64,000 bases of DNA from Acidobacteriota bacterium (GTDB lineage Bacteria > Acidobacteriota > Thermoanaerobaculia > UBA5066 > Gp7-AA6), in NCBI GenBank assembly GCA_046726795.1, contig JBKPBH010000027.1:4215-68214 (forward strand), read 5' to 3'. Numbering within the stretch: position 1 is the stretch's first letter; every line of letters begins with the position of its first letter. The notes beneath the pieces were generated by a model, which did no database searches, was not told the origin of the DNA, and saw nothing but the letters and a program-made list of their open reading frames with translations. This document shows, in pieces, positions 5,046 to 59,215 of the stretch. A program made the position numbers and the translations under genes.

Positions 5046-6089
5046 CTACCGCAGTTCCTCCATCATCTTCTCGAGGGCTTCGCGGCCGGGGCGGACGCGC
5101 TCCAGGGGAAGCGTCGCCAGGGGCTCCGCGGGCAGGTCGAGGAGAGCGAGGAAGTCCTTCTTTTGCGGCTCGACGTAGATCAGGCCCGTCAGGAACTCGC
5201 CCTTCTCCTGCGCCTCGTGGAGCAGATTGAAGGCGGCTCTCTTGTCGGTCGCGTCGTAGTCCTCGCGCAGCTTCTTCAAGCGGATGTGCGACCCGTCGTG
5301 CAACGTGACGTCCTGGGTCGTGCCCGGGTCGTAGTCCACGGTGATCTCGTCGAAGTAGGGGACGAAGCCGATTTCCTGGATCGGGATCTCGTGGTCCTTG
5401 GCCCACTTGTAGGACTTGGTCGAGTCCTCGTGGTTGTTGAAGGTGACGCACGGGGAGATGACGTCGAGGAGCGCGGTTCCGCGGTGCGAGATCGCGCCCT
5501 TCAACAGCGCCAGGAGCTGTTTCATGTCCCCCGAGAAGGAGCGCGCCACGTAGGCGCAGCCGAGCTCGATCGCCATCGCGCAGAGGTCGATCGCGGGCAG
5601 GTCGTTGACGACGCCGGTCTTCAGCTTCGATCCCAGGTCCGCGGTGGCCGAGAACTGCCCCTTCGTCAGGCCGTAGACCCCGTTGTTCTCGACGATGTAG
5701 ATCATCGGCACGTTCCGGCGCAGCAGGTGCATGAACTGCCCGGCCCCGATCGAGGCGGTGTCGCCGTCGCCCGAGACCCCGATCGACAGGAGCGTCGTGT
5801 TGGCCAGCATCGCCCCCGTCGCGACCGCCGGCATGCGGCCGTGAACGGCATTGAAGCCGTGGCCGCGGTCGGCGAAGTAGGCCGTCGTCTTCGAGGAGCA
5901 ACCGATGCCCGACATCTTGGCCGCTTTGTAGGGGGATACGCCCATTTCGTAGAAGGCCTGCGTGATCTGCCGGGTGATGACATCGTGCCCGCACCCGACG
6001 CAGAGCGTGGACTTCAACCCGCCGTACTCCTTGGTGGTCAGGCCGATGCGGTTGGTGGGAGGGGACTTGGGTTGGGCGACGGAGGACAT
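5046..6089 (-). CDS. korB: 2-oxoacid:ferredoxin oxidoreductase beta subunit (TPP-binding)
   Basis: Starts [11 protein letters not shown] (trimmed from the 806 aa ORF); TPP motif GDGD...[11 protein letters not shown]; its ATG overlaps the korA stop. Confidence 0.85.
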
Positions 6090-7939
6090 CACTTTTTCTC
6101 CCCGGCTTCGATCCCTTCGACCACCGTCTCGGCATCGATGGGAAAGCCGTCGTAATGGCGGAGCGAACGCAGCTTGGCCGAGTCCCCGGGGGGAAGCTCG
6201 AGCCGCAGGAGATCGAACATCTGGCCGTCGCGGTTCTGGTCCACGACGTAGATTCGGTCGTGGGACGCGACGAAGTCCGCGACCTCGTCTCCGATGGGAA
6301 GGGCCCGCAGGCGCAGGTAGTCCGTGCGGGTTCCCTTGCGCGAGAGGATCTCGCGGGCTTCCTGGATGGCGAAGTCGGAGGAGCCGTAGGCGATCAGGCC
6401 GATCCCCGACCCCGAGCCGTTGGAGAGGATGGGCCTGGGCACGAAACGGCGCGCCGTTTCGAACTTGCGGGCGAGCCGGTCCATGTTCGCCTTGTAGTCG
6501 TCGGGCTTCTCGGTGTACGTCGCCCGCTCGGAGTGGCCGGAGCCGCGGCAGAAATAGGCGGCCGCCGGGTTGTCGATCAAGCCGGGCAACGTACGGTACG
6601 GGATGCCGTCTCCCTCCACGTCCCTGTAGCGCGCGAACTCCTGGAACTTCCGGATGTGCTCCTTCAACTCCTCTTCGGTCCGGATCAGCTTTCCGCGGTC
6701 GACCGGCTTCTCGGGGTAGGCGAAGGGTTCTGCCATCCAGTTGTTCATCCCGAGGTCGAGATCCGTCATGATGAACACCGGCGTCTGGAAACGTTCGGCG
6801 AGGTCGAAAGCCTCCATGGCGAGTGCGTAGCACTCCTCGACCGAGCCGGGAATCACGAGGATGTGCTTGGCATCGCCGTGGGAGAGGAAGTAGGTCGAGA
6901 GGATGTCCCCCTGCATCGTCCGGGTCGGGAGCCCCGTCGAAGGGCCCACACGCTGCACATCCACGATGACGGCGGGGACCTCCGCGTAGTACCCGAGGCC
7001 TACGAACTCGGACATGAGCGAGATGCCGGGGCCGGACGTCGTCGTCATGGCCCGCGCGCCCGCCCAGCCGGCGCCCATGACCATGCCCGCCGCGGCCAGC
7101 TCGTCTTCGGCCTGCACGATCGCGTAGGTGGGCTTGCCCGTGACCGGGTCCTTCCGGAACCGCCGGCTGTACTCGATGAACGCCTCCGCGAGCGATGAGG
7201 ACGGCGTGATGGGGTACCAGGCGAGGACGTTGACGCCCGCCAGCACGCAGCCGATCGCGGTCGCGGCATTGCCGTCGATGATGATCTTGCCGGCCGTCTT
7301 GTTCATGCGCTCGAGCCGGTAGGGGTCCGTCCTGGTCAGATTCTCCTTCGCCCAGCCGAACCCGCCCTGGATGGCGTTCCAGTTGATTTCGACCGCCTTC
7401 TCCTTGCCCTTGAATTGCTTGACCACCGCCTTGCGGATCTCCTCCATGTCGATGTCGAGGAGCCATGCGGCCACGCCGACGTAGATCATGTTGATCGCGA
7501 GGCGCCGCAGCTTTCCGTCGTGCACGAGCTCCAGGACGAGCTTGGAGAAGGGGACGGGGTAGAGGTGCAGGTCGTCCCGCACTGACGTCAAGTTCAGGCT
7601 CTCCTCGTAGATGACCGCGGCGCCGGGGTGGACGGTCCGGACGTCCTCGTGGACCGTTTCGGGGTTCATGCAGATCAGGACGCCGACGTCGCGCCGGCGC
7701 GCGATGAAGCCCTCCTTGGAGGCCCGGATCGTGAACCAGGTCGGAAGTCCCTGGATGTTGGAAGGAAACAGGTTCTTGCCCGAGACGGGAATCCCCATCT
7801 GGAAGATCGACCGCATGAGGATGTTGTTCGAGGACATGCTCCCCGAGCCGTTCGCGGTGGCGACATGGATCGAGAAGTCGTTGACGACACTGGCGCCGCC
7901 CGCCTGTTCGAGGGTTTTTTCTTCAAGGACCGTGCTCAC
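6089..7939 (-). CDS. korA: 2-oxoacid:ferredoxin oxidoreductase alpha subunit
   Basis: KorA-like N-terminus (VNDFSIHVATANGSGSMSSNNIL). Start set at GTG ~7939, preceded by SD aaggag 7 nt upstream; the 40 codons upstream of it look non-coding. Confidence 0.82.
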   Translation of the reverse strand: MSTVLEEKTLEQAGGASVVNDFSIHVATANGSGSMSSNNILMRSIFQMGIPVSGKNLFPSNIQGLPTWFTIRASKEGFIARRRDVGVLICMNPETVHEDVRTVHPGAAVIYEESLNLTSVRDDLHLYPVPFSKLVLELVHDGKLRRLAINMIYVGVAAWLLDIDMEEIRKAVVKQFKGKEKAVEINWNAIQGGFGWAKENLTRTDPYRLERMNKTAGKIIIDGNAATAIGCVLAGVNVLAWYPITPSSSLAEAFIEYSRRFRKDPVTGKPTYAIVQAEDELAAAGMVMGAGWAGARAMTTTSGPGISLMSEFVGLGYYAEVPAVIVDVQRVGPSTGLPTRTMQGDILSTYFLSHGDAKHILVIPGSVEECYALAMEAFDLAERFQTPVFIMTDLDLGMNNWMAEPFAYPEKPVDRGKLIRTEEELKEHIRKFQEFARYRDVEGDGIPYRTLPGLIDNPAAAYFCRGSGHSERATYTEKPDDYKANMDRLARKFETARRFVPRPILSNGSGSGIGLIAYGSSDFAIQEAREILSRKGTRTDYLRLRALPIGDEVADFVASHDRIYVVDQNRDGQMFDLLRLELPPGDSAKLRSLRHYDGFPIDAETVVEGIEAGEKK

Positions 7940-8050: not shown

Positions 8051-10144
8051 ATGCATTTCCTCTTTCGCGCCGCGGGCGGCGCCCTTCTGCTCTTCCTGGT
8101 TCGGGACGCCTCGTGGGCCGCGTCGGGACGCCCCTTTCGGTTCGACGAGCTCGCGAGCGTCCGGCGCGTGGGGAGCTTCTCCCTCTCGCCCGACGGGCAG
8201 TGGGTCGCCTACTCAGTGGCAACGCCCGACGTGGAGGAGAACCGCATACGAACGGGGATCTGGATCCAGCCCGTGGCGGGGGGCGAAGCGCGAAAGCTGA
8301 CGTCCGGGGACAAGCGCGACTCGGACCCGAAGTTTTCTCCCGACGGAAAGAGGCTGGCGTTCCTCTCCAATCGCGACGGCGGCTCCCAGATCTACGTCCT
8401 CGACCTGGCGGGCGGGGAGCCCGTGAAGGCGAGCGCTTTTCCGATGGAAGTCCGCGGCTTCCGGTGGTCGCCCGATGGCGGGTTCTTCGTCTTCACCTCG
8501 GATGTCTTCCCCGACTGCGCCGACGCCGCCTGCAACGAGAAGAAGTCGAAGCAGCGGGAGAAGTCCAAGACGAAGGCCCGCGTGGCCGAGCGCCTCCTCT
8601 TCCGGCACTGGGACTCCTGGAAGGACGGCCTGCGGACGCACATCTGGAGGTCACCCGTCTCGGGGCCGGCCCCGGCGGCCGTGGACCTGACCCCCGGGGA
8701 TCGCGACGCTCCGCCCTTCTCCATCGGCGGCGGCGGCGACTACGACATCTCGCCGGACGGCCAGGATCTCGTCTACGCGTCGAACCCGGACAGGGTCGAG
8801 GCCCTCTCGACCAACGGCGACATCTGGATGGTCCCGTTCGACGCGAAGGGAAAGGCGCGGGACCTGACCGCCGCCAACAAGGCCTACGACGGCACGCCGA
8901 AGTTCTCTCCCGACGGAAAATGGATCGCGTACCGCTCGCAGAAGCGCCCCGGATTCGAATCCGACCGGTTCGCGCTCATGCTTCTCGAGCGGGCGACTGG
9001 AAAGATCCGGTCCCTGACCGAAGACTTCGACGGAATGGTCGAGTCGTTCACCTGGGCGCCGGACTCCCGCTCGCTCTGGTTCACCTCCCACGTCGGCGCC
9101 CGCGGGACGATCTTCCGCGTCGGTCTCGAGGGAAAGCCCGCGGAGATCTGGCGCGGAGGCTCGGCCTCCGACCTGACGGCGTCTCGGGACGGGCGGAAGA
9201 TCTACTTCTCGTCGAGCTCGCTCTCCCGCGCTCCCGAGATCTGGAGCGCCGGCGCGGACGGGAAGGGCGCCGCCGCGGTCACCCACGTCAACGACGGGCT
9301 CTGGAGGGAATTCGAGATGGGAGAGGTCTCCGAGCGTGTGACCCGCTCGGCGGACGGGCGGGATCTACAGGCCTGGCTCGTGAAACCCCCGGGCTTCGAT
9401 CGCTCGAAGAGACACCCGGCGGTTTTCCTGATTCACGGCGGCCCGCAGGGCGCCTGGACGGATTCCTGGTCCACCCGCTGGAATCCCCAGGTCTGGGCGG
9501 CCTACGGCTACGTCGTCTACGCCGCCAACCTGCGCGGCTCGACCGGTTTCGGGCAGAAGTTCGTGGACGAGATCTCGGGTGACTGGGGAGGTAAGGTCTA
9601 CGAAGACCTGATGCGCGCCGCCGATGACCTCGAATCGCTCCCCTTCGTGGACAGGACCCGCGTCGGAGCTGCCGGCGCCTCATACGGGGGTTACATGATC
9701 GATTGGATCGCCGGCCACACGAGCCGGTTTGCGGCGCTCGTCTCCCACGATGGCGTCTTCGACACGGTCTCCTCGGGCCTCGAGACCGAGGAGCTCTGGT
9801 TCCCGGCCTGGGAGTTCAAGGGTTTCCCCTGGGACCCGGGCTCGGTCTATCAGAAATGGAACCCCATGCTCTCGGCCGACAAGTTCAAGACGCCGACCCT
9901 CGTCATCACGAGCGAGCGGGATTTCCGTGTTCCCTTCGGCCAGGGCCTCCAGTTCTTCACCGCTCTGCAGGTGCGCGGGGTGCCGTCTAAGCTCCTGACC
10001 TTCCCCGACGAAGGCCACTGGGTCTTGAAGCCCGGCAACTCCCGCCTCTGGCACGCCACGGTGATGGACTGGCTCCATCGCTATCTTGGCGGCGCCGCCC
10101 CCGACCCCGGGGCTCTGGACACCGCCTACAGCGTGACGAGGTAG
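8051..10144 (+). CDS. S9 family serine peptidase (prolyl oligopeptidase / acylaminoacyl-peptidase-like), secreted
   Basis: Signal peptide, beta-propeller region with repeated SPDG motifs, C-terminal alpha/beta-hydrolase with GASYGGYM nucleophile elbow and D/H. Confidence 0.85.
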   Translation: MHFLFRAAGGALLLFLVRDASWAASGRPFRFDELASVRRVGSFSLSPDGQWVAYSVATPDVEENRIRTGIWIQPVAGGEARKLTSGDKRDSDPKFSPDGKRLAFLSNRDGGSQIYVLDLAGGEPVKASAFPMEVRGFRWSPDGGFFVFTSDVFPDCADAACNEKKSKQREKSKTKARVAERLLFRHWDSWKDGLRTHIWRSPVSGPAPAAVDLTPGDRDAPPFSIGGGGDYDISPDGQDLVYASNPDRVEALSTNGDIWMVPFDAKGKARDLTAANKAYDGTPKFSPDGKWIAYRSQKRPGFESDRFALMLLERATGKIRSLTEDFDGMVESFTWAPDSRSLWFTSHVGARGTIFRVGLEGKPAEIWRGGSASDLTASRDGRKIYFSSSSLSRAPEIWSAGADGKGAAAVTHVNDGLWREFEMGEVSERVTRSADGRDLQAWLVKPPGFDRSKRHPAVFLIHGGPQGAWTDSWSTRWNPQVWAAYGYVVYAANLRGSTGFGQKFVDEISGDWGGKVYEDLMRAADDLESLPFVDRTRVGAAGASYGGYMIDWIAGHTSRFAALVSHDGVFDTVSSGLETEELWFPAWEFKGFPWDPGSVYQKWNPMLSADKFKTPTLVITSERDFRVPFGQGLQFFTALQVRGVPSKLLTFPDEGHWVLKPGNSRLWHATVMDWLHRYLGGAAPDPGALDTAYSVTR

Positions 10145-22905: not shown

Positions 22906-22972
22906 TGTTGAGTCATGAGCCGTGAGTTAGCCTTGTCTGTTTGAACTCACGACTGACGACTCCTGACTCACT
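22906..22972. repeat. Intercistronic stem-loop (dnaB-alr) with arms made of tandem heptamers
   Basis: Left arm tgttgag tcatgag ccgtgag; right arm actcacg actgacg actcctg actcact; begins 15 nt after the dnaB TAG. Confidence 0.55.
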
Positions 22973-24083
22973 CCTGTTCTCCCGTCCGACCCTCGCCGTC
23001 GTGGACCTGGGGGCCATCGCCCGCAACTACGGGCTGCTGAAGAAACGCGTGGGTGGCGCCGTGGCGGTCTTTCCCGTCGTCAAGGCGGACGCCTACGGGC
23101 ACGGGGCGGTACCGGTGGCGCGCCGGCTGACCGCGGAGGGGGCGCGGACGCTCGCCGTCGCGATCGCGGAGGAAGGGATCGCGTTGCGGCGCGCGGGCGT
23201 TGCGGGCGAGATCCTGCTGCTGAACTTTTCCGACCCGGCGGAGACCCCGCTGCTGCGAGCCTACGGCCTGACGCCGGCGCTCTATGACCTCGAGCACGCC
23301 GCCGCCTTCGCCCGTGCCGCCGCCGCTCTGCCTTCCCCGCTCCCGGTCCACGCCAAATTCGACACCGGGATGGGGCGGCTCGGGCTCGCGCCGGAGGACA
23401 CCGGCGCCCTCGCCGGTCTCTTCCGAGGTTCGCGGCTGAAGCTGGCGGGCGTCTTCGCGCAACTTTCGTCGGCCGAGGATTCCACGTCTCCCGCGACGGC
23501 GGCCCAGGTGCGGGGGCTGGCCGGCGTGGTTTCGGCCCTGCGCGGGATGGGCCTCGATCCCGGCCTCGTCCACCTCGCCAACTCCGCCGGAGTTCTCGCG
23601 CGCCCGGATTCCCACTTCGACGCGGTGCGTCCTGGCATTGCCCTCTATGGGATCCCTCCATCGCCCACGATGGAAAGAGAGGGCCTCGAACCCGCGCTGA
23701 CTCTGGAGACTCGCGTCATGTCCGTGAGACGGGTGCCCTCCGGCACGTCCCTCGGATACGGCGGAGTCTTCGTCACGCGCCGGCCTTCGACCATCGCGGT
23801 CCTTCCGATCGGCTATGATGACGGCCTTCGAAGGTCCTTCTCCGGTCGGATTTCCGTGTTGGTCGAGGGCAAGGAGGCGCCGATCGTCGCTGCGGTGAGC
23901 ATGGATCTGACGCTCGTGGACGCGACAGACTGCGGCGCCGCCCGGGGCGATCGGGTCGTGTGTCTGGGGGCGGAGGGCCGGCGTTGTGTGACCGCGTGGG
24001 ACCTCGCCCGCGCGGCCGGGACGGTCCCGTATGAGATCCTCTGCGGGATTTCCGCCCGCGTGCCCAGAAGGTATCGGGATTGA
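22941..24083 (+). CDS. alr: Alanine racemase
   Basis: PLP motif VVKADAYGHG and C-terminal domain; the ORF-track start TTG 22941 lies inside the heptamer hairpin, and the alternative start is GTG 23001 (VDLGAIARNY). Confidence 0.88.
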   Translation: MNSRLTTPDSLLFSRPTLAVVDLGAIARNYGLLKKRVGGAVAVFPVVKADAYGHGAVPVARRLTAEGARTLAVAIAEEGIALRRAGVAGEILLLNFSDPAETPLLRAYGLTPALYDLEHAAAFARAAAALPSPLPVHAKFDTGMGRLGLAPEDTGALAGLFRGSRLKLAGVFAQLSSAEDSTSPATAAQVRGLAGVVSALRGMGLDPGLVHLANSAGVLARPDSHFDAVRPGIALYGIPPSPTMEREGLEPALTLETRVMSVRRVPSGTSLGYGGVFVTRRPSTIAVLPIGYDDGLRRSFSGRISVLVEGKEAPIVAAVSMDLTLVDATDCGAARGDRVVCLGAEGRRCVTAWDLARAAGTVPYEILCGISARVPRRYRD

Positions 24084-25706: not shown

Positions 25707-27152
25707 ATGAACACTGCGGCGAAGGTCGGAGGGTTTTTCCTGGTGATCCTGATCCTGGCGGGTCTCCTGATCTGGAGGATCGAGGACCTGCGCTTGGGTC
25801 GGGGACCGGCCAAGAAGATCTCGGTCGAGTTCAAGGACGTGGCAGGCCTGGACGCCAAGTCCACCGTGCGCCTGGCCGGCGTCCGCGTGGGGAAGGTGGC
25901 CCGGATCCGCCTGACGTCCGACGGGCGCGCGATCGTGGACATGGACCTCGATCACGAAGTGGAGCTGCGGCGCGGAGCGTCGGCCTCAATCGCGAATCTG
26001 GGTCTGCTCGGAGAGAAGTACGTCGAGCTCGTGCCCGGGCCGGTGGGCGCGCCCGAGCTTCCCGAGGGGACGACACTCAAGGGGGACATCCCCGTCAGCT
26101 TCGACCAGATCACCAAATTGGCGAGAGACATCGAGGTGGACGTCAAGGACATCACGAAGAATCTGAGCCAGTCGCTCGGCGGGCCCCAGGGGGAGGAGCG
26201 GCTCCGCACGATCATCGACAACATCAAGATCATTACCGAGGATCTGCGCGTGATGGTCGCCTCCAACCGCGGCAACGTGGACGCGACGCTGGCGAATCTC
26301 AAGGATCTCACGGAGGGGATGACGCAACTGGTGGACCGCGTGGACAAGCTCATCGCCTCCAACTCCGCCAACGTCACGCAGGGCATCGCCAACATCAGGG
26401 ACGTCTCCGGCAAGCTCGAGACAACGGCCGAGAACCTCAACCAGATCACCGGCAAGATCAAGTCCGGGGAGGGGACTGTCGGGAAGCTCGTCGAGAGCGA
26501 GGAAACCCACAAGAACCTGAACGAGGCCCTGGTCGCGGTCAAGGAAGGGGTCGCGGGGCTGAACAAGGCCCTGGGATCGGTCGGGCGGACCCGGTTCGAC
26601 CTGGGCGTCCGTTCCGAGCTGCTGACGCGCTTCTCGAAGGGAAAGGGCTACTTTTCCCTCGACATCAATCCCCCCGAGTCCCCCCGCTTCTATCGGTTCG
26701 AGCTGTCCACGGAGCCCTTCGGGCGCCGCGTCTCCTCGACGAGCGTCGAGACGACGACCTTTCCGGACGGGCACGTCGAGGTCAAGACGACCGACACGCA
26801 GGAGTTCAAGGACGACTTCGCCATCACAGCGCTCTTCGGATACCGGTGGAGGGACTGGGGCCTGCGGGCCGGGGTCATCGAGTCCCGCGGCGGCGCGGGC
26901 CTCGACTACAAGCTCCTGAAGGACCGCCTTCGCCTCTCGGCCGACGTGTGGGACTTCACCCGCCCCGATTTTGCCGCCCATGCAAAATTCACGGGCCGCT
27001 ACTTCATCTCGCCTTCCGTCTATTTTCAGGGGGGCTGGGACGACTTCCTGAACCGCTCGCGGGCAGCCGACTCGATCTTCGTGGGGGCGGGCGTGCGCTG
27101 GACCGACGACGACATCAAGTACCTGCTCGGCTCGGTGCCCATCAAGCCGTGA
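25707..27152 (+). CDS. mlaD: MlaD/MCE-domain protein
   Basis: N-terminal TM followed by an Mce domain (KISVEFKDVAGLDAKSTVRLAGVRVGKV) and a long coiled-coil C-terminal extension. Confidence 0.75.
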   Translation: MNTAAKVGGFFLVILILAGLLIWRIEDLRLGRGPAKKISVEFKDVAGLDAKSTVRLAGVRVGKVARIRLTSDGRAIVDMDLDHEVELRRGASASIANLGLLGEKYVELVPGPVGAPELPEGTTLKGDIPVSFDQITKLARDIEVDVKDITKNLSQSLGGPQGEERLRTIIDNIKIITEDLRVMVASNRGNVDATLANLKDLTEGMTQLVDRVDKLIASNSANVTQGIANIRDVSGKLETTAENLNQITGKIKSGEGTVGKLVESEETHKNLNEALVAVKEGVAGLNKALGSVGRTRFDLGVRSELLTRFSKGKGYFSLDINPPESPRFYRFELSTEPFGRRVSSTSVETTTFPDGHVEVKTTDTQEFKDDFAITALFGYRWRDWGLRAGVIESRGGAGLDYKLLKDRLRLSADVWDFTRPDFAAHAKFTGRYFISPSVYFQGGWDDFLNRSRAADSIFVGAGVRWTDDDIKYLLGSVPIKP

Positions 27153-27240
27153 AACGTGAACCGTAAAGCGTCAAGCGTGACCCGGAGCGGCCGAGACGGG
27201 ACGGCGCTTCGTTTCGGGTTTCACGTCTAACGTCTGAGGA
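27147..27240. repeat. Stem-loop with tandem-heptamer arms between mlaD and radA
   Basis: Left arm ccgtgaa acgtgaa ccgtaaa gcgtcaa gcgtgac spans the mlaD TGA; right arm gcttcgt ttcgggt ttcacgt ctaacgt ctgagga; cgtgaaacg and cgtttcacg are complementary. Confidence 0.55.
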
Positions 27241-27247
27241 TCCGAAT

Positions 27248-28591
27248 ATGCCCCGCGCCACGACGGTTTTCGCGTGCCAGTCCTGCGGGGCTTCGTCGTC
27301 CAAGTGGCTCGGCCGCTGCCCGGACTGCGGGGAGTGGAACAGCTACGTCGAGGAGCTTCGGGCGGAGAGGGCCGCTCCGCAGGCGGCCCTCCCCGCCTCG
27401 ATGGCGCAGGTGCAGGGCGAAGCGAGCACGCGGCTGGCGACCGGCCTGCCGGGTCTCGACCGGGTGCTCGGCGGAGGACTGGTCGCGGGTTCGGTCGTTC
27501 TTCTGGGCGGCGAGCCCGGCATCGGCAAGTCCACCTTTCTCCTCCAGGCGGCCCGCGCCCTCGCGACACTGGGCGGCGATGTCCTCTACGCCACCGCGGA
27601 GGAGTCGGCGGCTCAGGTCCGGATGCGAGGCGAGCGGCTTCGCGTGCGGGAGGAGACCCTGCTGCTCGCCGCCGAAACGGACGTCGAGCGCGTCGTCGCG
27701 GCCGCCGAGCGCCGCCCGCCGGCGCTGCTGATCGTGGACTCCATCCAGGCCGTTCGAGAACCGGCTCTCTCGTCGGCGGCCGGCACAGTCACGCAGGTGC
27801 GCGAGTGCGCCTCGGTCCTGCAGCGGTTCGCCAAGACGCGAGACGTGCCGGTCATCCTGATCGGCCACGTGACCAAGGACGGCAGCCTCGCCGGTCCCAA
27901 ATCGCTCGAGCACCTCGTGGACACCGTCCTGACGCTCGAAGGGGAGAGGACCTCTCTGCGGCGCGTCCTGCGCGCCACGAAGAACCGGTTCGGGCCGGTC
28001 GAGGAGCTCGCGCTTTACGACATGACCGGGGAGGGTCTTTCCGAGATCTCCAATCCTTCGGCTGCGCTCCTGGCCGAGCGGCGGGCCGGCCTTCCGGGCA
28101 GCGCCGTGACGGCCACGCGGGAAGGGTCCCGTTGCCTTCTCGTGGAGATCCAGGCACTCGTCGGGCCGCCGGCGGCGGGCTCCCCCCGGCGTGTGGCGAT
28201 CGGTTTCGATCCCGGACGGCTCGCCCTTCTCCTGGCCGTTCTCGAAGGGTCGGGCCTGCCGCTGGCGTCCCGGGAGGTCTTCGTCTCCTGCGCGGGAGGC
28301 CTCTCCACCGCCGAGCCCGCGGCGGACCTGGCCGCGGTGGCGGCGCTGGCCTCTTCCGCCCGAGGGCGCGCCATCCCCGCGGACGTCGTCTGCTTCGGCG
28401 AAATCGGATTGCTCGGCGAAGTTCGTCGAGTTCCGGCGGCCAGCTCCCGTCTGAAGGAGGCCGTGGCCATGGGCTTTCAAACAGTTTACCTGCCCTCCGG
28501 AGACGCGGCGGAAGCCGGGCGCTTTCAGGATCTCGCGATCCGCCCCGTCGAGCGGGTCAGGGACTTCGTCCAGGAGATTTGTGATTTGTGA
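27248..28591 (+). CDS. radA: DNA repair protein RadA/Sms
   Basis: N-terminal Zn ribbon CQSCGASSSKWLGRCPDCGEW, RecA-like Walker A GEPGIGKST, KNRFG motif, Lon-like C-terminus. Confidence 0.95.
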   Translation: MPRATTVFACQSCGASSSKWLGRCPDCGEWNSYVEELRAERAAPQAALPASMAQVQGEASTRLATGLPGLDRVLGGGLVAGSVVLLGGEPGIGKSTFLLQAARALATLGGDVLYATAEESAAQVRMRGERLRVREETLLLAAETDVERVVAAAERRPPALLIVDSIQAVREPALSSAAGTVTQVRECASVLQRFAKTRDVPVILIGHVTKDGSLAGPKSLEHLVDTVLTLEGERTSLRRVLRATKNRFGPVEELALYDMTGEGLSEISNPSAALLAERRAGLPGSAVTATREGSRCLLVEIQALVGPPAAGSPRRVAIGFDPGRLALLLAVLEGSGLPLASREVFVSCAGGLSTAEPAADLAAVAALASSARGRAIPADVVCFGEIGLLGEVRRVPAASSRLKEAVAMGFQTVYLPSGDAAEAGRFQDLAIRPVERVRDFVQEICDL

Positions 28592-28659
28592 TTGTTGATT
28601 TGTGATTTGTGATCAGGGCAGCAAGCGTCGCTTCGCCCCCTCACTCATCACAAATCACC
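28576..28659. repeat. Tandem heptamer array (GATTTGT x5) spanning the radA stop codon, with a downstream inverted copy
   Basis: gatttgt gatttgt gattgtt gatttgt gatttgt encodes the last radA codons (ICDL*); atcacaaatcac at 28647-28658 is the reverse complement of gtgatttgtgat at 28581-28592 (12 bp stem). Confidence 0.6.
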
Positions 28660-28673
28660 TCGCCGATTGTCCA

Positions 28674-43092: not shown

Positions 43093-44826
43093 GTGGCCGG
43101 GCGTTCCGCGAGGCGTCGGATTCGCCTCTTTGTCGTCCTGTCAGGCGCGCTCGTTCTGGCCTCGCTGGTTCCTCTGCTGGTTTCCGACGGTGTCCTCATC
43201 CGCCGCAACCAGCGGACCCTCGAGACGCTGGAAGAGAAGTACCTGACCAGGTCCTCCTCCGCCCTGGCGGACCACCTGGCGGCCTTCTATGGCTCCGCGC
43301 GGGAGAGGCTGAAGAGCGCGGCGGCTTCCCTGTGGCTGGCCGGACAGCTCACCGGGAAGGACCCCTTCACTTCGGAGGACGGTCCGCGCCTCCTCGGGTC
43401 CTTCCTCTCGGGCCGCACGCCGCTCGTGGCGTTGCGGGGCTTCAACGTGACCGGCTCGGGCCGCTTCGTGGGACCCGACGTGCGCTCGCCGTCGCTCGAC
43501 TACGAGTTCCGCAAGGGTTTCGAGTCGGCGCGCGACGGCGTGCTTTACCAGGGCAAACCCTTCTGGATGCCGGAGCTCGGTCCCGTGGCGGTTCTCGCGC
43601 TGCCGGTGATGGACGAGGGGAAAGGCCGGTCCGGGGTCGTCGAGGCTCTGGTGTCCTGGCAGCCGATCGCCAACGAGTTCCGCGACGAAGCGCACAGGGA
43701 AGTCCACGTCAGCCTCATCGACCGGGAAGGAGACGTCCTCTTTCCCCTCTTCGCGCGCGCCCAGAAACGCCGCGGGTCGCTCCTGGTGGCCGACTTCATG
43801 CGCTTCCCCGCCAGGTTGACCCGGTCGGAGATGACGCCTCGGGGCGCCGTGCTCGCTTCCATCGCGCCGGTCGGGCAGCCGGACTGGGGGGTCCTGGTCG
43901 AACGCGACCGCGACCTCGCCTTCGCGTCGGTGGACCTGATGGTGCGAGACACCGTGATCTGGAGCGCGGTCGCCCTGGCCTGCGCCCTGCTCCTCGGCAT
44001 CGTGTTCGCTCGGCGTCTCTCCGACCCGATCGCCCGCCTGGCTCAATCGACCTACGCCATCAGCGAAGGGGAGTACGGGGCGACCGTCGAAGTCGCCGGG
44101 ACGGCGGAGATCGCGGACCTGTCGGAGAACTTCAACCGAATGAGCGCGTCGATCCGGACGGCCTTCGACCAGGTCCAGAGAGCGGCCCGGGAAAACCGGG
44201 AGCTGTTCCTGGCCTCCATCCGCGCGCTCGCAGAGGCCATCGACGCCAAGGACCCCTACACGCGAGGCCACTCGGAACGCGTGGCGGCCTACGCGGCGGT
44301 CGTTGCGTCGGAGATGGGGCTGCCGCCTCCGGAGGTCGAGCGCATCCGCCTGTCCGCTCTCCTCCACGATGTCGGCAAGATCGGGGTGGACGACCGCATC
44401 ATCCGCAAGCCGACGGCCCTGTCGGAGCAAGAATTCCAGTTGATGAAGACCCATCCGATCAAGGGGGCCGCGATCATGTCGGCGATTCCCCAGCTGGCCG
44501 ACGTCATCCCGGGCATGAAGTACCACCACGAGAAGTGGGGCGGCGGCGGATATCCGGAGGGTTTGAAGGGCGAGGAGATTCCGCTGCAGGCCCGGATCGT
44601 CACGGTCGCCGACACCTTCGACGCCATGACCACGACGCGCCCTTACCAGCAGGCCATGGAGACCGACTACGTGATCCAGAGAATCAAGCAGTTCGCGGGC
44701 GTCCGCTACGATCCCGCGGTCATCGAGGCCTTCGTGCGGGCCTATGAGAAGGGAGAGCTCACGCCGATCCCCGTCCGTCCGGCGCTCGAGGAGCCGGAGG
44801 AGTCGGAGCTGGCCGAAGCGCTTTGA
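43093..44826 (+). CDS. HD-GYP domain c-di-GMP phosphodiesterase with periplasmic sensor and HAMP domain
   Basis: N-terminal TM, ~250 aa periplasmic region, second TM, HAMP, then HD-GYP motifs (HSERVAAYA, HDVGKIG, HHEKWGGGGYPEGL). Confidence 0.8.
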   Translation: MAGRSARRRIRLFVVLSGALVLASLVPLLVSDGVLIRRNQRTLETLEEKYLTRSSSALADHLAAFYGSARERLKSAAASLWLAGQLTGKDPFTSEDGPRLLGSFLSGRTPLVALRGFNVTGSGRFVGPDVRSPSLDYEFRKGFESARDGVLYQGKPFWMPELGPVAVLALPVMDEGKGRSGVVEALVSWQPIANEFRDEAHREVHVSLIDREGDVLFPLFARAQKRRGSLLVADFMRFPARLTRSEMTPRGAVLASIAPVGQPDWGVLVERDRDLAFASVDLMVRDTVIWSAVALACALLLGIVFARRLSDPIARLAQSTYAISEGEYGATVEVAGTAEIADLSENFNRMSASIRTAFDQVQRAARENRELFLASIRALAEAIDAKDPYTRGHSERVAAYAAVVASEMGLPPPEVERIRLSALLHDVGKIGVDDRIIRKPTALSEQEFQLMKTHPIKGAAIMSAIPQLADVIPGMKYHHEKWGGGGYPEGLKGEEIPLQARIVTVADTFDAMTTTRPYQQAMETDYVIQRIKQFAGVRYDPAVIEAFVRAYEKGELTPIPVRPALEEPEESELAEAL

Positions 44827-44838
44827 GACGGCGAGAGC

Positions 44839-44938
44839 GGCTGGGCGACTGGGCGACTGGGGGACTGGGGGACTGGGAGAAAACTTGAAAGCAGCACCGG
44901 CCTCTCTCCCAGTCTCCCCGTCTCCCAGTCCCCCAGTC
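44839..44938. repeat. Stem-loop with tandem octamer arms (GACTGGGN x5 and YCCCAGTC x4)
   Basis: ggctgggc gactgggc gactgggg gactgggg gactggga ...spacer... tcccagtc tccccgtc tcccagtc ccccagtc; begins 12 nt after the HD-GYP TGA. Confidence 0.65.
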
Positions 44939-44944
44939 CGCTGT

Positions 44945-45697
44945 TTGTTCGCCGTGCTGGCTCTCATTGCGATAATTCCCTTTGCCGGCGCATGCTCGTC
45001 GCAAAGGAAGGCGCAGACCTCGACCGAGCTGCTCTTGAACGAACGGATGGCCGCCGTTCTGCTGCGGGAGGGACGCGCGCGCGAGGCGGAAGACGCTTAT
45101 CGCGATGTGCTGCGCTCGGATCCGAAGAAGCCCGACCTCCATGACGGGCTGGGCCTCTGCCTGCTCGCGCAGGGGAAGCTGCGCGAGTCGCTCGACTCCT
45201 TTGACCGAGCCGTCAAACTCGACGCCGAGAAAGCGCTCTACCGGATCCACCGCGGAATGGCTCGCACGCAGCTCGGCCGGTACGGGGAGGCCGAGGAAGA
45301 CTTCCGCGTCGCGGAGAGATCTCCGGCACCCGAGGACCAGCTCGACCTGGCGTTGAACCGCGGCCGGATGCGACTTCGGATGGGAGACGACGCAGCGGCC
45401 GAGGCCCAGTTCTCCGTCGCGCTCTCTCGGGAACCCAAGTCCATGGACGCGCTGCTCGGGCGGGGCATGGCCCGCGAATCGCGCAAGGACTTCGCGGCGG
45501 CCGCCGAGGACTACCTGGAGGCCGTTCGCCTGCAGCCCAGGAGTCCGGAGGCGAATCTGCACCTGGGTCTGGCGCTCGTGACCCTGAAGAAAACGGCGCT
45601 CGGCCGCCGATACCTCGAGCGCACCGTGGAACTCGACCCCACCGGCGCCGCCGGCGCGAAGGCTCGCCTCCTGCTCGAGAACGGTCCGCCGAGCTAG
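44945..45697 (+). CDS. TPR-repeat lipoprotein
   Basis: Lipobox FAGAC followed by four to five TPR repeats. Start TTG 44945 or GTG 44954; an upstream in-frame TTG at 44885 would make the right repeat arm code SPSPSPP. Confidence 0.6.
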   Translation: MFAVLALIAIIPFAGACSSQRKAQTSTELLLNERMAAVLLREGRAREAEDAYRDVLRSDPKKPDLHDGLGLCLLAQGKLRESLDSFDRAVKLDAEKALYRIHRGMARTQLGRYGEAEEDFRVAERSPAPEDQLDLALNRGRMRLRMGDDAAAEAQFSVALSREPKSMDALLGRGMARESRKDFAAAAEDYLEAVRLQPRSPEANLHLGLALVTLKKTALGRRYLERTVELDPTGAAGAKARLLLENGPPS

Positions 45698-46753: not shown

Positions 46754-47945
46754 ATCTCTCATGAGTCGCCGAGACTCTCCCATCGACCCGAAGTGGATGG
46801 ACCGCGCGCTGGAGCTGGCAGAACGCGGCCGGTACACGGTTTCGCCAAACCCCATGGTCGGAGCCGTCGTGGTGAAGGCCGGCCGAATCGTCGGCGAAGG
46901 CTTTCACGAGCTGGCGGGCGGTCCCCACGCCGAGGTCGTGGCGCTCGCCGCGGCCGGAGCGCGCGCGCGGGGCGCGGACCTGTACGTGACGCTCGAGCCC
47001 TGCTCGCACTTCGGGCGGACCCCACCCTGCGCCGATGCGCTCGTGGACTCCGGGGTCGCGCGGGTCATCGTGGCGGCGAGGGATCCGAATCCCGTCGTCG
47101 CGGGGCGCGGGACGGCGGCGCTTTCCCGCGGGGGCATCGAGGTCATCGAGGCCGACTTGGGACGGCGGCGGCGCGCGGAGCGCCAGAACGAGAAATTCCG
47201 GGTCTGGATCTCAGCCCGGCGTCCCTTCGTGCTCGCCAAGTGGGCGCAGACGCTGGACGGGAAGATCGCGGCGGCGGGGGGCGGCAGCCGATGGATCACC
47301 GGGGCGGAATCCCGGAAGCGGGCGCTTCTTCTCCGGGAAGAATACGACGCGGTCTTAGTCGGTGCGAACACCGTGATCGCGGACGATCCCAGGCTGACGC
47401 GCCGCCTGGGAAAGAATCGCGCGACCCGGCACCGGCGGATCGTCCTGGACGGCCGGCTCCGGGTCTCCCAGAACGCCCGCCTCTTCCACTCTCCGGAGGG
47501 GACGGTCGTGGTGACCAGCCGCCCCGAAGGCCACGGCGATGTCCGGCGGCTCGCTTCACGCGGGGTCTGCGTCTGGAGCCTGCCCGGCAGGGAGGGACGG
47601 GTGAGTGTTCCGCGCCTCTTGAGGAGGCTCGCCCGCGAGGGAATCGCGAGCCTCCTGGTCGAGGGAGGAGGAGACACACTCTGGCAGTTCTTTCGCGCCG
47701 ATCGGGTGGATCGGGTCGCCGTCTTCCTCGCGCCCCGGATCCTCGGCGGCGGCCGCGCCCCGGGGGCCGTCGGCGGCCAGGGCTTCTCGCTTCGCTCCAC
47801 GCCTCGCCTCCAAGATGTCGAGGTCGAGGGCCTCGGGGAGGACCTCTTCATCACCGGCCGCGTCTCCCGTGACCGGCGGGCCGGGGGACTGGGCGACTCC
47901 GTGACCGGGACAAGGCGGACGACCGGGAGAAAGCAGTCACTGTGA
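46743..47945 (+). CDS. ribD: Bifunctional riboflavin biosynthesis deaminase/reductase
   Basis: Deaminase HAEV...PCSHFGRTPPC plus reductase domain; ATG 46743 overlaps the ftsY 3' end (alternative ATG 46761). The last ~30 aa overlap a degenerate GACTGGG repeat copy. Confidence 0.88.
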   Translation: MDPESLMSRRDSPIDPKWMDRALELAERGRYTVSPNPMVGAVVVKAGRIVGEGFHELAGGPHAEVVALAAAGARARGADLYVTLEPCSHFGRTPPCADALVDSGVARVIVAARDPNPVVAGRGTAALSRGGIEVIEADLGRRRRAERQNEKFRVWISARRPFVLAKWAQTLDGKIAAAGGGSRWITGAESRKRALLLREEYDAVLVGANTVIADDPRLTRRLGKNRATRHRRIVLDGRLRVSQNARLFHSPEGTVVVTSRPEGHGDVRRLASRGVCVWSLPGREGRVSVPRLLRRLAREGIASLLVEGGGDTLWQFFRADRVDRVAVFLAPRILGGGRAPGAVGGQGFSLRSTPRLQDVEVEGLGEDLFITGRVSRDRRAGGLGDSVTGTRRTTGRKQSL

Positions 47946-47999
47946 TCACCGATCTGCCGGTCTCCCCATCTCTCAGTCTCCCAGTCGTTGACCGGCAGA
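47883..47999. repeat. Second, degenerate copy of the GACTGGG/CCCAGTC element plus a 10 bp stem hairpin downstream of ribD
   Basis: gggggactgggcgactcc lies inside the ribD 3' end and shares the 12-mer gactgggcgact with 44847-44858. The hairpin tctgccggtc...gaccggcaga (47953-47999) has a loop containing tctcccagtc, identical to 44921-44930. Confidence 0.55.
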
Positions 48000-51488: not shown

Positions 51489-51490
51489 GA

Positions 51491-51518
51491 GTCGATCGTC
51501 GACAGTCGATGGTCGAAA
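51491..51518 (+). repeat. Tandem heptamer array (GTCGANN x4) immediately after the stop codon
   Basis: gtcgatc gtcgaca gtcgatg gtcgaaa starts 3 nt after the TAG at 51486-51488. Confidence 0.55.
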
Positions 51519-51526
51519 GTTCCGCG

Positions 51527-51560: not shown

Positions 51561-51595
51561 ATGTCTTACTTTCCTCCGCGTCTCCGCGTCTCGTT

Positions 51596-53810: not shown

Positions 53811-53897
53811 ATTTTGGATTCTGGATTTTGGATCTTGGATTGCGACAGGAGATCCCGGCTCAATCCAAAATCTAAAATCGAGAATCTAAGATCGTGC
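53811..53897. repeat. AT-rich stem-loop with tandem heptamer arms between exbD (3' end) and hppA (5' end)
   Basis: ttttgga ttctgga ttttgga tcttgga ...aggagatcccggc... tccaaaa tctaaaa tcgagaa tctaaga; the right arm ends at the exbD stop codon. Confidence 0.6.
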
Positions 53898-55621: not shown

Positions 55622-56356
55622 CTAGTGCAAGTTGAACGTCACGGTCACGGTCAGGTACACGCGCACCGCCCTCCCGTTGAGGGTGGCGGGCTTGTATCTC
55701 CATTGCTGCACCGCGCGGACCGCGGAGGCATCCAGCAGCGGATTGACGGACTTCAAGACCTTCACGTCCTCGACGCTGCCGGAAGCCGTGATGATGGCCT
55801 CCAGGATGACGACGCCTTCCATCCGGGCCTTGCGCGCCGCCTCGGGATAGGTCGGCTCGACGCGGTTGGTCAGGACGGGGGCCTTGACCTCGCCTCCGAC
55901 TCGAAGCGGCTCGCCTTCGCCCGTGCCGGGTCCCGTGCCGCCCGGCACTCCGCCCAGGACGCCGCCCGGCACCCCGCCTTCGACGCCGCCCGGGACGCCG
56001 CCTTCCACCCCGGCCGGCGCCTCCGGCTCGGGCGCGGAGAGCGGCTTGGGGATGTTCTCGGGAATGATGGTCGGCGCCACCATCTCCGTCGGCCGGACCG
56101 GCACCTGCTTCTGGACCTCGGGCGCCTTGGGCTTGGGCGCCGGGGCAGCCGCCGGGGGCGGGGGGGGTGGGGGGGGGGCCGAGGCGTAGAAGGTGACCGG
56201 AATCGGAGGCTCCGGCACGTCTTCGACGAACCAGATCGAGGCGCCGAGCGCGATGCCGATGACGATCGCGTGGATGGCGATCGACACGGGCAGGGTCACG
56301 GCCTTGCGCGAATCCCCCTTGTGAGGAGCCGATTCGATCAGCGACTCTTCGAACAT
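55622..56356 (-). CDS. tonB: Energy transducer TonB
   Basis: N-terminal TM, Pro-rich spacer (PPPPPPPPAAAPAPKPKAPE) and TonB C-terminal domain. Confidence 0.8.
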   Translation of the reverse strand: MFEESLIESAPHKGDSRKAVTLPVSIAIHAIVIGIALGASIWFVEDVPEPPIPVTFYASAPPPPPPPPAAAPAPKPKAPEVQKQVPVRPTEMVAPTIIPENIPKPLSAPEPEAPAGVEGGVPGGVEGGVPGGVLGGVPGGTGPGTGEGEPLRVGGEVKAPVLTNRVEPTYPEAARKARMEGVVILEAIITASGSVEDVKVLKSVNPLLDASAVRAVQQWRYKPATLNGRAVRVYLTVTVTFNLH

Positions 56357-57424: not shown

Positions 57425-59131
57425 TTGAAAAGACCCCGACTCCTTGCCGCGGCGCTCCTGTTCGCGGCGCCGCTCCTGGCCCAGAAACCCCCCGAGCCGG
57501 CCCAGAAGCCCCCCTCGTCCGCGGACAAGCCGCTGCCGCCCGTCAGCGAGAGGGTCGAGGTCGCGGTCACCAACGTCGAGGTCGTCGTCACCGACTCGAA
57601 GGGGAAACGAGTCCCTGGCCTGACCCGCGATGACTTCGAGGTCTGGCAGGACGGCACGCCGCAGAAGATCACGAACTTCTACGCGGTGTCGGGAGGCAAG
57701 GTCCTCCTCGACGATGGCAAAGTCGTCGCCCTGGATTCCCCGGCGGCCTCCGCGGAGATCCCGGTCGACCTGAAGGCCCGCTACATCCTCTTCATCGACA
57801 ACCTGAACATCCAGCCCCAGAACCGCAACCGGATGTTCAAGCGTCTCGAGGAGTTCGTGCAGCAGACGATCGGCCCGCGCGCCGAGGCGATGGTCGTGAC
57901 CTACAACCGATCCCTGAAGACCCGGCGCAAGTTCACCTCCGAGCCGAGCGAGGTCGTGGCCGCGCTCGACGAGATCGAGAAGGAGACGGGCGGCGGCACC
58001 ACGCTCGTCTCCGAGCGGCGCGACGCCCTCCACCAGATCGACGAGTCGACCAACGCCGGCTCCGCTTTGACCATCGCGCGCAGCTACAGCCGCTCGCTGC
58101 GCAACGATCTCCTGTTCCTCGTGGACGCGTTGAAGAACACGATGAACAGCCTTGCGGGAATCGAGGGGCGCAAGATCCTGGTCTACGTCTCCGAGGGGAT
58201 TCCCTCGACGGCCGGGCTCGAGCTCTTCGATCAGATCCAGCGGAAGTTCCGGGACCAAGCCGGCACTTCGACGCTCGAGCAGTTCGAGTTCGACATGAAC
58301 GCGAAATACGCCGGCATCATCCAGTCGGCCAACGCGCAGGGGGTCACGATCTGGGCGCTCGATGCGTCGGGCCTGACGACCGAACAGCTCACCTCCGCGG
58401 AGAACCGGTCCTTCGAGACGCGCCCCAACGACTTCGTCCTGCGCCAGAACACGCAGGCGCCGCTGCAGCTCATGGCGGACCAGACCGGCGGCATGGCCGC
58501 CATCAACACCAATGACTGGAAGAAGAGCTTGGACGAGCTGTCCTCGGACTTCTCCAACTTCTACTCGATCGGCTACCGCACGACCCGCTCGGCGGTGGAC
58601 CGCCCGCACTCCGTCGAGGTGCGGGTCAAGCGCAAGGGCCTGACCGTCCGCGCGCGCAAGGGGTTCCTCGAGAAGACGGTCGAGACGAAGACAGCCGAGG
58701 GAGTCCTGGCGAGCCTCTTCTACCCGCGGGACGACAATCCTCTCGCCATCAGCGTCTCCGTCGGCGCGCAGCGCCCCTACGACCAGGAGAACTTCGCCCT
58801 ACCCGTCCGTATCGCCGTCCCGATCGGCAAGCTCGGCCTCGTGCCGACCGGCGACCACTACGAGGCGACCTTCTTCGTCTACGTGGTGGCCCGGGACAAC
58901 TCGGAAAAGCAGTCGGACCTGGCGGTCCAGCGTCAGGTTGTGACGGTCCCCGCCAAGGAGCTCGACAAGGCGCAGCGCAAGGACTGGTACTACGACTTCA
59001 CGATGACCGTGGCGCCCGGCGCCCAGCGAGTGGCTTTCGCCGTCCGGGACGGAATCTCGAACCAGGTCTCTTATTACCAGAAGAACCTGTTCATCTCGCT
59101 CCTCCCGAAGGAGACCAAAGCCAAGAGTTGA
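57425..59131 (+). CDS. Secreted von Willebrand factor A (VWA) domain protein
   Basis: SD aggagg + TTG 57425 gives signal peptide MKRPRLLAAALLFAAPLLAQ; VWA fold with MIDAS-like residues (ILFIDNLN...S..G.T). Confidence 0.7.
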   Translation: MKRPRLLAAALLFAAPLLAQKPPEPAQKPPSSADKPLPPVSERVEVAVTNVEVVVTDSKGKRVPGLTRDDFEVWQDGTPQKITNFYAVSGGKVLLDDGKVVALDSPAASAEIPVDLKARYILFIDNLNIQPQNRNRMFKRLEEFVQQTIGPRAEAMVVTYNRSLKTRRKFTSEPSEVVAALDEIEKETGGGTTLVSERRDALHQIDESTNAGSALTIARSYSRSLRNDLLFLVDALKNTMNSLAGIEGRKILVYVSEGIPSTAGLELFDQIQRKFRDQAGTSTLEQFEFDMNAKYAGIIQSANAQGVTIWALDASGLTTEQLTSAENRSFETRPNDFVLRQNTQAPLQLMADQTGGMAAINTNDWKKSLDELSSDFSNFYSIGYRTTRSAVDRPHSVEVRVKRKGLTVRARKGFLEKTVETKTAEGVLASLFYPRDDNPLAISVSVGAQRPYDQENFALPVRIAVPIGKLGLVPTGDHYEATFFVYVVARDNSEKQSDLAVQRQVVTVPAKELDKAQRKDWYYDFTMTVAPGAQRVAFAVRDGISNQVSYYQKNLFISLLPKETKAKS

Positions 59132-59206
59132 GAGTTGAGGCTTGAGAGTCGAGAAGGGAGAGGAACCCGGGAGCCCTCTCTTGACTCTCGACTCTCAACT
59201 CTGAAC
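59125..59206. repeat. Stem-loop with tandem heptamer arms spanning the VWA stop codon
   Basis: gagttga gagttga ggcttga gagtcga gaaggga gaggaac ...cccgggagcc... tcttgac tctcgac tctcaac tctgaac; the TGA at 59129-59131 lies inside the first unit. Confidence 0.6.
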
Positions 59207-59215
59207 ACTCCCGAC

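Follow-up and report, generated by a model that had tools for sequence, protein, structure and literature searches.

An octamer-repeat hairpin over the start region of a TPR lipoprotein gene in Thermoanaerobaculia and a possible ribosome path across it

The HD-GYP/lipoprotein junction

The window analyzed here is a 64,000-nucleotide (nt) stretch of DNA (~68% G+C) from an Acidobacteriota bacterium of the class Thermoanaerobaculia (assembly GCA_046726795.1, contig JBKPBH010000027.1, positions 4,215 to 68,214 of the forward strand), and the element in question is a repeat-built hairpin lying between two plus-strand genes. The upstream cistron (43093 to 44826, stop codon TGA 44824-44826) encodes a HAMP and HD-GYP protein with Pfam matches to HD_5 (1.2e-38), HD, and HAMP and with an HHEKWGGGGYP motif; it was syntenic in all relatives. 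The downstream cistron encodes a TPR lipoprotein of 270 amino acids (aa) when its open reading frame (ORF) is read from a start in the hairpin loop (plus strand, 44885 to 45697), with matches to Pfam TPR families and a lipobox, F-A-G-A-C, whose Cys codon occupies 44993-44995. Homologs of the lipoprotein numbered 313 and were named as Thermoanaerobaculia TPR proteins; they point to a soil-dwelling member of that class as the source of the window.

An initial annotation, made by reading the DNA alone, had described a hairpin of five and four octamers beginning 12 nt after the HD-GYP stop; the distance was correct and the hairpin proved to be real and nonrandom. The left array (44839-44878) consists of five GACTGGGN octamers, GGCTGGGC GACTGGGC GACTGGGG GACTGGGG GACTGGGA, and the right array (44907-44938) of four YCCCRGTC octamers, TCCCAGTC TCCCCGTC TCCCAGTC CCCCAGTC. 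Tandem Repeats Finder (TRF) assigned both a period of 8, with 5.1 copies and 93% matches on the left and 4.2 copies and 88% matches on the right, and an inverted repeat pairs 44847-44880 with 44905-44938 (arms of 34 nt, 88% complementarity). The two-unit pattern had 10 matches in the window against 1.06 expected, a count reached in none of 100 shuffles. Folded as RNA, positions 44820-44970 gave -89.2 kcal/mol compared with -62.0 +/- 4.1 kcal/mol for shuffled versions (z = -6.71, 0 of 200 shuffles equally stable), and the hairpin has an energy of -85 kcal/mol within a 137-nt context, its stem being a nearly perfect duplex of ~40-45 bp. In these folds, all on the plus strand, the G-rich left (5') arm spans 44837-44880 and contains five tracts of three to five G, separated by loops of 3-5 nt. 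The loop of 24 nt (44881-44904) holds the probable lipoprotein start codon, TTG 44885-44887, and the C-rich right (3') arm of four YCCCRGTC units (44905-44941) is probably read as ..LPVSPSPSPPVR.., part of the signal-peptide n-region. A GGGAG resembling a Shine-Dalgarno (SD) sequence (44875-44879) is supplied by the last left-arm unit, 5 nt 5' of TTG 44885, and lies in the stem. Since the same architecture recurs at the orthologous junction in independent assemblies from ENA, JGI, Logan, and NCBI, the element is no assembly artifact.

Searches for a known RNA family or signal were negative. Rfam 15 returned no matches at gathering thresholds across the window, and relaxing the cutoff to E <= 1 added nothing but spurious hits of the generic long-hairpin kind to eukaryotic miRNA precursors, which fell on both strands and scored far below threshold. 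No sigma-70 promoter was found at the element, in a scan whose coverage leaves out promoters of this phylum, and a terminator scan called no terminator-like site at 44830-44960. An intrinsic terminator, with a short G+C-rich stem, a loop of 3-8 nt, and an immediate U-run, was rejected given the 24-nt loop, the ~45-bp stem, and the interrupted tail, UGUUUGUUC.

The junction in relatives

The orthologous junctions of relatives, designated L001 onward by locus, come in two states. In 13 hairpin-less orthologues, which include L009, L010, L011, L013, L014, L017, L026, L047-49, and L053-55, the HD-GYP stop and the lipoprotein start overlap by 4 nt as GTGA, ATGA, or TTGA (NTGA), the NTG of the overlap being the lipoprotein start. 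The lipoproteins of these orthologues are ~254 aa long, and K or R occurs within the first five residues in 13 of 13. GACYGGG-type hairpins at this junction are confined to one crown clade, where the bearers (the window; L003, L002, and L045; L076; L004; L005; L006-8; L077; L078; L015; and L079) are interleaved with hairpin-less sisters. Because the relatives without it have an NTGA overlap at this very place, the comparison indicates that the site of hairpin growth was a junction marked as translationally coupled by its overlap. Elsewhere in the relatives' loci, GACYGGG arrays were found only at orthologous junctions, apart from a chance match at a gene overlap in L011.

Hairpins are gained, resized, and lost quickly, since clusters of >90% protein identity mix hairpin-bearing forms (285-289 aa) with hairpin-less or collapsed ones (253-256 aa, e.g., MRRDWNLF..). 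Collapsed or partial forms include TTGAGAGCGCGAGACTGTCCCCCGGTCCGC, in frame, in L046 (88% protein identity to the window) and ATGAGCCCCCGTCCCCC.. in L014, whose protein reads MSPRPPC.... The closest relative, L001 (91% protein identity), carries only a left array, GACGCGGN x4, at 9929-10040. In that locus the last GACGCGGN unit supplies GGAG plus a GTG start, giving MKRRRIASVALMVSGLSLFVLSAC; the deposited gene call starts later (MVSGLSLF..), with a signal peptide that is too short, and overruns the normal end (331 aa).

Species with no more than 71-82% identity in the flanking protein nevertheless keep the same unit at this junction, and 10 of 10 orthologous hairpins have folding energies of -47 to -76 kcal/mol. 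Junction DNA was identical in the independent samples L002, L003, and L045, and likewise among L006-L008. Between L003 and L076 there were 10 differences, with no clear compensation and equal folding energy, and between the sisters L015 and L079 three 1-nt indels in the right-arm region make a net change of +3. An RNAalifold consensus of six sequences retains the hairpin with a positive covariation term and only three pairs with double changes; we do not claim covariation support, given so few double changes and an alignment register that the repeat arms leave ambiguous. A single origin, considered from the 'MKA' N-terminus shared by the window loop and the sequence upstream of the L077 left arm, was discarded, the resemblance being too weak when M-K-A is a common beginning of signal peptides.

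Start codon of the lipoprotein

At each locus, all canonical starts in frame with the lipobox Cys and upstream of it were tabulated. The window offers three, the loop TTG 44885 (36 codons before the Cys), TTG 44945, and GTG 44954. In L004 the sole canonical in-frame start is a loop ATG, also 36 codons before the Cys, and the stretch from the right arm to the Cys contains no ATG, GTG, or TTG. For L003 and L006 the choice narrows to the NTG overlapping the HD-GYP stop, which is in frame through both arms; their other starts lie 2-6 codons before the Cys, too close to serve. Hence, with no usable canonical start after it, the right arm must be translated in L004, L003, and L006. L015 has a loop ATG 35 codons before the Cys, a TTG at 5932 that is the counterpart of window TTG 44945 (16 codons before the Cys), and two more TTGs 4 and 6 codons before the Cys, too close for a signal peptide. 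The start homologous to the window's loop TTG is ATG in L004, L015, and L079.

Translation from TTG 44885 yields MKAAPASLPVSPSPSPPVRC..., in which the right arm is read as ..SPSPSPP... A lipoprotein signal peptide opens with positive charge in its n-region, continues with a hydrophobic core, and closes with a lipobox whose last residue is Cys. By inspection, the peptide from TTG 44885, MKAAPASLPVSPSPSPPVR-CLFAVLALIAIIPF-AGAC, has all three. The initial annotation had placed the start at TTG 44945 or GTG 44954 and had mentioned the spacer TTG, with its SPSPSPP reading of the right arm, as a further in-frame possibility. Both favored codons are indeed in frame with the Cys codon at 44993, but they would give an n-region without K or R, unlike every hairpin-less orthologue, no purine-rich SD occurs in the 16 nt upstream of either, and both lie inside the basal stem. 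Because orthologue starts, SD position, and the K/R n-region all favor TTG 44885, the right arm is probably translated in the window as well. On sequence grounds the spacer codon is now the best start candidate and most likely the start, with TTG 44945 and GTG 44954 less likely, and the right arm most probably encodes residues that are later lost along with the signal peptide.

Such hairpins mislead start annotation, as the identical junctions of L045, L003, and L002 received different gene calls: 240 aa (LPSTAGC..) in L045, from JGI, versus 289 aa in L003 (Logan) and L002 (ENA). Across near-identical loci, gene callers disagree over products of 216 to 289 aa, some of them with a start six codons short of the lipobox Cys. 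A rule for placing the start comes from the comparative frames described here.

Ribosome access and a putative relay upstream ORF

The GGGAG at 44875-79 pairs with 44906-44910, and its mean probability of being unpaired is 0.003; with the left arm held single-stranded, structure worth only -14 kcal/mol is left. With the only SD buried in a very stable stem, autonomous binding of a 30S subunit at the lipoprotein start is predicted to be unlikely. The initial annotation's statement that the structure covers the start region and leaves no SD outside it therefore stands, and since GGGAG is paired, initiation must depend on the hairpin being opened. The further suggestion, that translation initiation is controlled by the structure, survives in this respect; a dedicated regulatory device is not supported, because the hairpin belongs to a clade-wide class, is lost or collapsed in NTGA sisters, and shows no sense-strand-specific pairing signal.

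A putative relay upstream ORF (uORF) of 21 codons (plus strand, 44823 to 44888) crosses the left arm. Its TTG 44823 overlaps the HD-GYP stop as TTGA, and its stop, TGA 44886-88, overlaps the loop start TTG 44885, again as TTGA. In the window, TTG 44823 and the lipoprotein are in different frames. The same arrangement occurs in L004 (TTGA...ATGA, 15 codons) and L015 (GTGA...ATGA, 19 codons), and in L003, L076, L005, L006, L079, L077, and L078 the overlapped start is in frame through the whole hairpin. Across the 10 hairpin-bearing junctions, the overlapped start was thus either in frame with the lipoprotein (seven) or in the relay frame (the window, L004, and L015), and in the third frame in none. 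Termination-reinitiation and coupling by RNA unfolding are established mechanisms (PMC12548453), and the frames and overlaps are consistent with both as models of a ribosome path from HD-GYP to the lipoprotein.

These data suggest the following sequence of events, to which, taken as a whole (a hairpin in a coupled junction, a start at TTG 44885, a coding right arm, and a uORF relay), we assign a probability of roughly one half. The arrays would have arisen by unit slippage together with inverted duplication or template switching. On the mRNA, the hairpin would bury the only SD (GGGAG 44875-79) and leave TTG 44885 in the loop, and the right arm would encode a Pro/Ser-rich n-region that cleavage at the lipobox Cys removes. 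After ending HD-GYP at TGA 44824, ribosomes would reinitiate on the overlapping TTG 44823, translate the uORF through the left arm and so melt the stem, then terminate at TGA 44886 and reinitiate at the overlapping TTG 44885; at minimum, ribosomes on the uORF would expose the SD so that a fresh 30S subunit could bind. The lipoprotein would in this way stay coupled to HD-GYP across an insertion of ~120 nt, probably in an obligatory and weaker form.

Several observations weigh against this account. The hairpin is lost or collapsed, leaving plain NTGA coupling, in the sisters L046, L014, and P0135 and in L009 versus L004; it is dispensable, and may persist without being useful. The frame count has little statistical force, (2/3)^7 being ~0.06 among sequences that are related, and recorded N-termini are biased by gene callers. 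An NTGA at the loop start is partly expected, since the second codon of signal peptides favors K/R (AAR/AGR). The signals in the window are themselves weak, the SD of the overlapped TTG being GAAG versus GAGG in relatives and both starts being TTG. Lastly, neither G.U pairs nor folding energy favored the sense strand in 23 hairpins of the class, whose complementarity looks symmetric at the DNA level.

Array hairpins in the window and the clade

The hairpin is one of a class. Counting TRF arrays with a period of 7-8 and at least 3.3 copies, we found 13 arrays of 7-8-nt units in the window against a mean of 0.57 and a maximum of 3 in dinucleotide shuffles. Most form inverted pairs that fill spacers between same-strand genes, each pair with its own unit, and they share a geometry: the 5' arm contains or closely follows the stop of the upstream gene, and the downstream gene starts a few bases past the 3' arm. 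Five further hairpins were GAGTCAT../ACTCACG at 22917-22975, CGTGAAA/TTTCACG at 27148-27240 (followed by ATG 27249), GATTTGT/CACAAAT at 28566-28666 (followed by ATG 28683), ATTTTGG/CCAAAAT at 53811-53892, and AGAGTTG/CAACTCT at 59124-59210 (followed by ATG 59217). The upstream stop falls within the first units in three of these five; a heptamer unit that contains TGA places stops in all three frames within three units.

A second GACTGGG/CCCAGTC hairpin (plus strand, 47879-47986) lies between the conserved end of ribD and the ribE start, ATG 48016. The ribD ORF runs beyond its conserved ..TGRV end, enters the left arm, and reaches its stop codon in the loop. GACTGGG-type units thus occur at two loci in the 64-kb window, the other arrays carrying other units, and the right arms of 47879-47986 and 44905-44938 share the order of their variant units, which suggests common descent or copying. 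At the ribD/ribE junction of L001, a collapsed version with a single CCCAGTC was observed.

Arrays of the same kind occur at many junctions in related Thermoanaerobaculia contigs (ENA, JGI, Logan, and NCBI), whereas more distant relatives have few or none. Related units recur at orthologous junctions, GTTTCAG/AACCTGA between the TPR gene and ftsY and GTCCAAA/CCTTGGA between ribD and ribE. Two regularities stand out. The 5' arm was G-rich and the 3' arm C-rich in 23 of 23 hairpins from the window and L001-L047 (14 of 14 junction families), on either strand, and array size is narrow, ~4-5 units, also for the non-G-tract units GATTTGT, AGAGTTG, ATTTTGG, and CGTGAAA. Fixed polarity and a size of 4-5 units that is independent of G-tracts, both beyond what a G-quadruplex (G4) explanation covers, are the most promising lead at the level of the class. 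The G-rich-first polarity matches the 'convergent' orientation reported for Xanthomonas pairs.

Some arrays are unpaired. In the spacer between the TPR gene and ftsY of L019, L021, and L022 (~6686-6810), AGCTGTC x4 is accompanied by CGTTTCC x4, to which it is not complementary. In the window, the likewise noncomplementary AGTCGAT x4.4 (51490-51520) and CTCCGCGT x2.4 (51574-51592) flank a classical stem-plus-T-run terminator between convergent genes. As single spacers can hold noncomplementary arrays, it may be the arrays, and not the hairpins, that are primary. Read on the opposite strand, CTCCGCGT is the GACGCGGA unit at the HD-GYP/TPR junction of L001.

Alternative explanations

The most credible competitor, which we hold to be possible although doubtful, is that the hairpin is a neutral or selfish palindromic simple sequence repeat (SSR) acting at the DNA level, functionless, with selection maintaining only the path by which the lipoprotein is translated. 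On this view slippage and template switching would create and lengthen arrays in any spacer, or in any coding segment as tolerant as a signal-peptide n-region. It is compatible with the favored anatomy and differs from the relay account only in denying any benefit or regulation, which the hairpin might otherwise confer. The presence, absence, and resizing of the hairpin within clusters of >90% identity and between sisters all agree with it, as do the separate unit of each junction, the lack of sense/antisense asymmetry, the existence of unpaired arrays, and the 10 positions that differ between L003 and L076 without clear compensation and at equal folding energy. Neutrality is harder to reconcile with a unit kept between species at 71-82% flanking identity, where neutral sites should saturate, or with the strict polarity, G-rich 5' arms in 14 of 14 junction families, and the narrow array size of ~4-5 units.

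Next, the start may follow the hairpin, at TTG 44945 or GTG 44954, with a noncoding hairpin serving to bring the HD-GYP stop beside the start; the terminating ribosome would open the basal stem and reinitiate across it. The class hairpins at 27148-27240, 28566-28666, and 59124-59210 have precisely this layout, with an ATG 7-17 nt past the 3' base and a stop in or at the 5' base, and TTG 44945 is matched by TTG 5932 of L015, 16 codons before the Cys. We nonetheless consider it unlikely, as L004, L003, and L006 have no usable start there, and in the window the resulting n-region would lack K and R, no SD is available, and both codons are in the basal stem. Equally improbable, in our view, is a broader proposal, that one Thermoanaerobaculia clade uses repeat-built hairpins as a general operon device of fixed polarity and size, every spacer between cistrons holding a convergent pair of 7-8-nt arrays with 4-5 units and the G-rich arm first, making the downstream cistron strictly dependent on upstream ribosomes, with a relay uORF where the coding start has been invaded. 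If true, it would imply a dedicated or strongly biased mechanism that builds and homogenizes arrays.

The hairpin could instead act on the transcript, as an RNase III site at which the two cistrons are separated, as a 3'-exonuclease barrier for the HD-GYP message like that of repetitive extragenic palindromic (REP) elements, or as a terminator in the form of a translation-relieved attenuator. A near-perfect duplex of ~40 bp beginning 12 nt past the stop, the U-rich UGUUUGUU after the stem, and the increase in transcript stability proposed for the hairpins of cyanobacterial short tandemly repeated repetitive (STRR) elements (PMC2670836) speak for such a role. It is a poor candidate all the same: no terminator was called, the loop measures 24 nt, the U-run is interrupted and codes for C-L-F, and other hairpins of the class lack a U-run. 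Processing cuts in both arms would remove the start codon wherever the arm is coding, and ftsY, ribD, and ribE remain syntenic and tightly spaced downstream in all relatives.

A phase-variable contingency locus, in which gain or loss of 8-nt units shifts the frame and switches a surface lipoprotein on and off, would fit a unit length that is not a multiple of three at the 5' end of a lipoprotein gene, the in-frame and out-of-frame states found among relatives, and the length variants within clusters of >90% identity, but is very improbable when the units are imperfect (93% and 88% matches), the junction is identical in L002, L003, and L045 and in L006-L008, and every out-of-frame state has a loop start, so that no OFF state was observed. 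We give as little credence to the G-rich left arm acting as a G4 in DNA or RNA, for although it has five G-tracts and a unit that is almost the Nostoc GGGGACT heptamer plus one base, (GGGGACT)4 forming a G4 in vitro (PMC4692102), the hairpin, whose complementary arm is 24 nt away, stays the minimum-energy fold when G4s are allowed, the left arm by itself yields no more than -13.5 kcal/mol, and the class consists mostly of arrays whose units lack G-tracts but which have the same size of 4-5 units.

Relation to known repeat hairpins and coupled genes

The element is a new-phylum example of the known intercistronic repeat hairpin and not a new device. The heptamer repeats GGGAATC of Xanthomonas and GGGGA(C/T)T of Nostoc are arrays of ~4 units between aligned ORFs near the stop, with 70-75 convergent inverted pairs per genome in Xanthomonas, and both GGGGACT and GGGAATC repeats have been proposed to form G4s (Rehm et al. 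2015, PMC4692102). Like these SSRs, the arrays described here are tandem short G-tract units, ~4 or more per array, are located between aligned ORFs within 50 nt of the stop or overlapping it, occur as convergent pairs able to form a stem-loop, and keep their type of arrangement between related species while varying in length. Unlike them, the unit is of 8 nt, many units, mostly not G-rich, occur per genome, the host is an Acidobacteriota, and the copy studied occupies the region where a coding sequence starts, with translation of at least part of it.

The 7-bp-repeat STRR hairpins of cyanobacteria, e.g., between hupS and hupL, were hypothesized to affect transcript stability or translational coupling (PMC2670836), and likewise are intercistronic hairpins made from tandem short repeats. 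Here, by contrast, the unit is an octamer, in DNA of 68% G+C and in another lineage, and comparison with relatives reveals that a junction with an NTGA overlap received the insertion, whose loop holds a start codon. Heptamer arrays of TAACTGA located just 5' of start codons in Beggiatoaceae are a related case (PMC4679880). The literature searched contained no paper linking such repeats to Thermoanaerobaculia. What is new is hence the octamer unit, the many units per genome, the phylum, and the placement, in which the hairpin occupies a coding start that carries an NTGA overlap and its loop contains a start codon. With this case, the range of STRR and Xanthomonas-type repeat hairpins, which have been little studied, comes to include the Acidobacteriota.

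REP elements are intergenic palindromes of ~100 nt between cotranscribed genes, with proposed roles in mRNA stability. The hairpin resembles REP elements, bacterial interspersed mosaic elements (BIMEs), and REPINs in being an intergenic palindrome of ~100 nt between cotranscribed genes. REP sequences are high-copy and near-identical, with GTAG/CGTC heads and a RAYT transposase, whereas the arms here are internally periodic, begin with GCGGCTGGG, and show no GTAG/CGTC head, and units differ by locus, only two loci in 64 kb sharing one.

Known cases of coupling include MS2 coat-lysis, f1 VII-IX, rpmI-rplT, and NTGA overlaps (PMC12548453, PMC6728339). In common with such pairs, the downstream ribosome-binding site is predicted to be sequestered in a structure that upstream translation would open, and stop/start tetranucleotides overlap at both ends of the uORF. 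Unlike in them, ribosomes would cross 62 nt of stem by translating a short putative relay uORF, and the hairpin is built from repeats and dispensable in sister lineages. The relay, if true, would be a compact natural example of coupling through uORF-mediated unfolding, and the case shows that a hairpin of about -85 kcal/mol can occupy the start of a gene without killing it.

Neighboring genes and a further repeat region

Downstream of the lipoprotein gene, ftsY, ribD, and ribE follow at tight spacing and in conserved order in all relatives. Elsewhere in the window, a 12/24/36-nt periodic repeat (55938-56018) and a 25-base G-run on the plus strand (56154-56178) were recorded. Both fall in the proline-rich part of a minus-strand TonB-like gene beside ExbB/ExbD and are ordinary.

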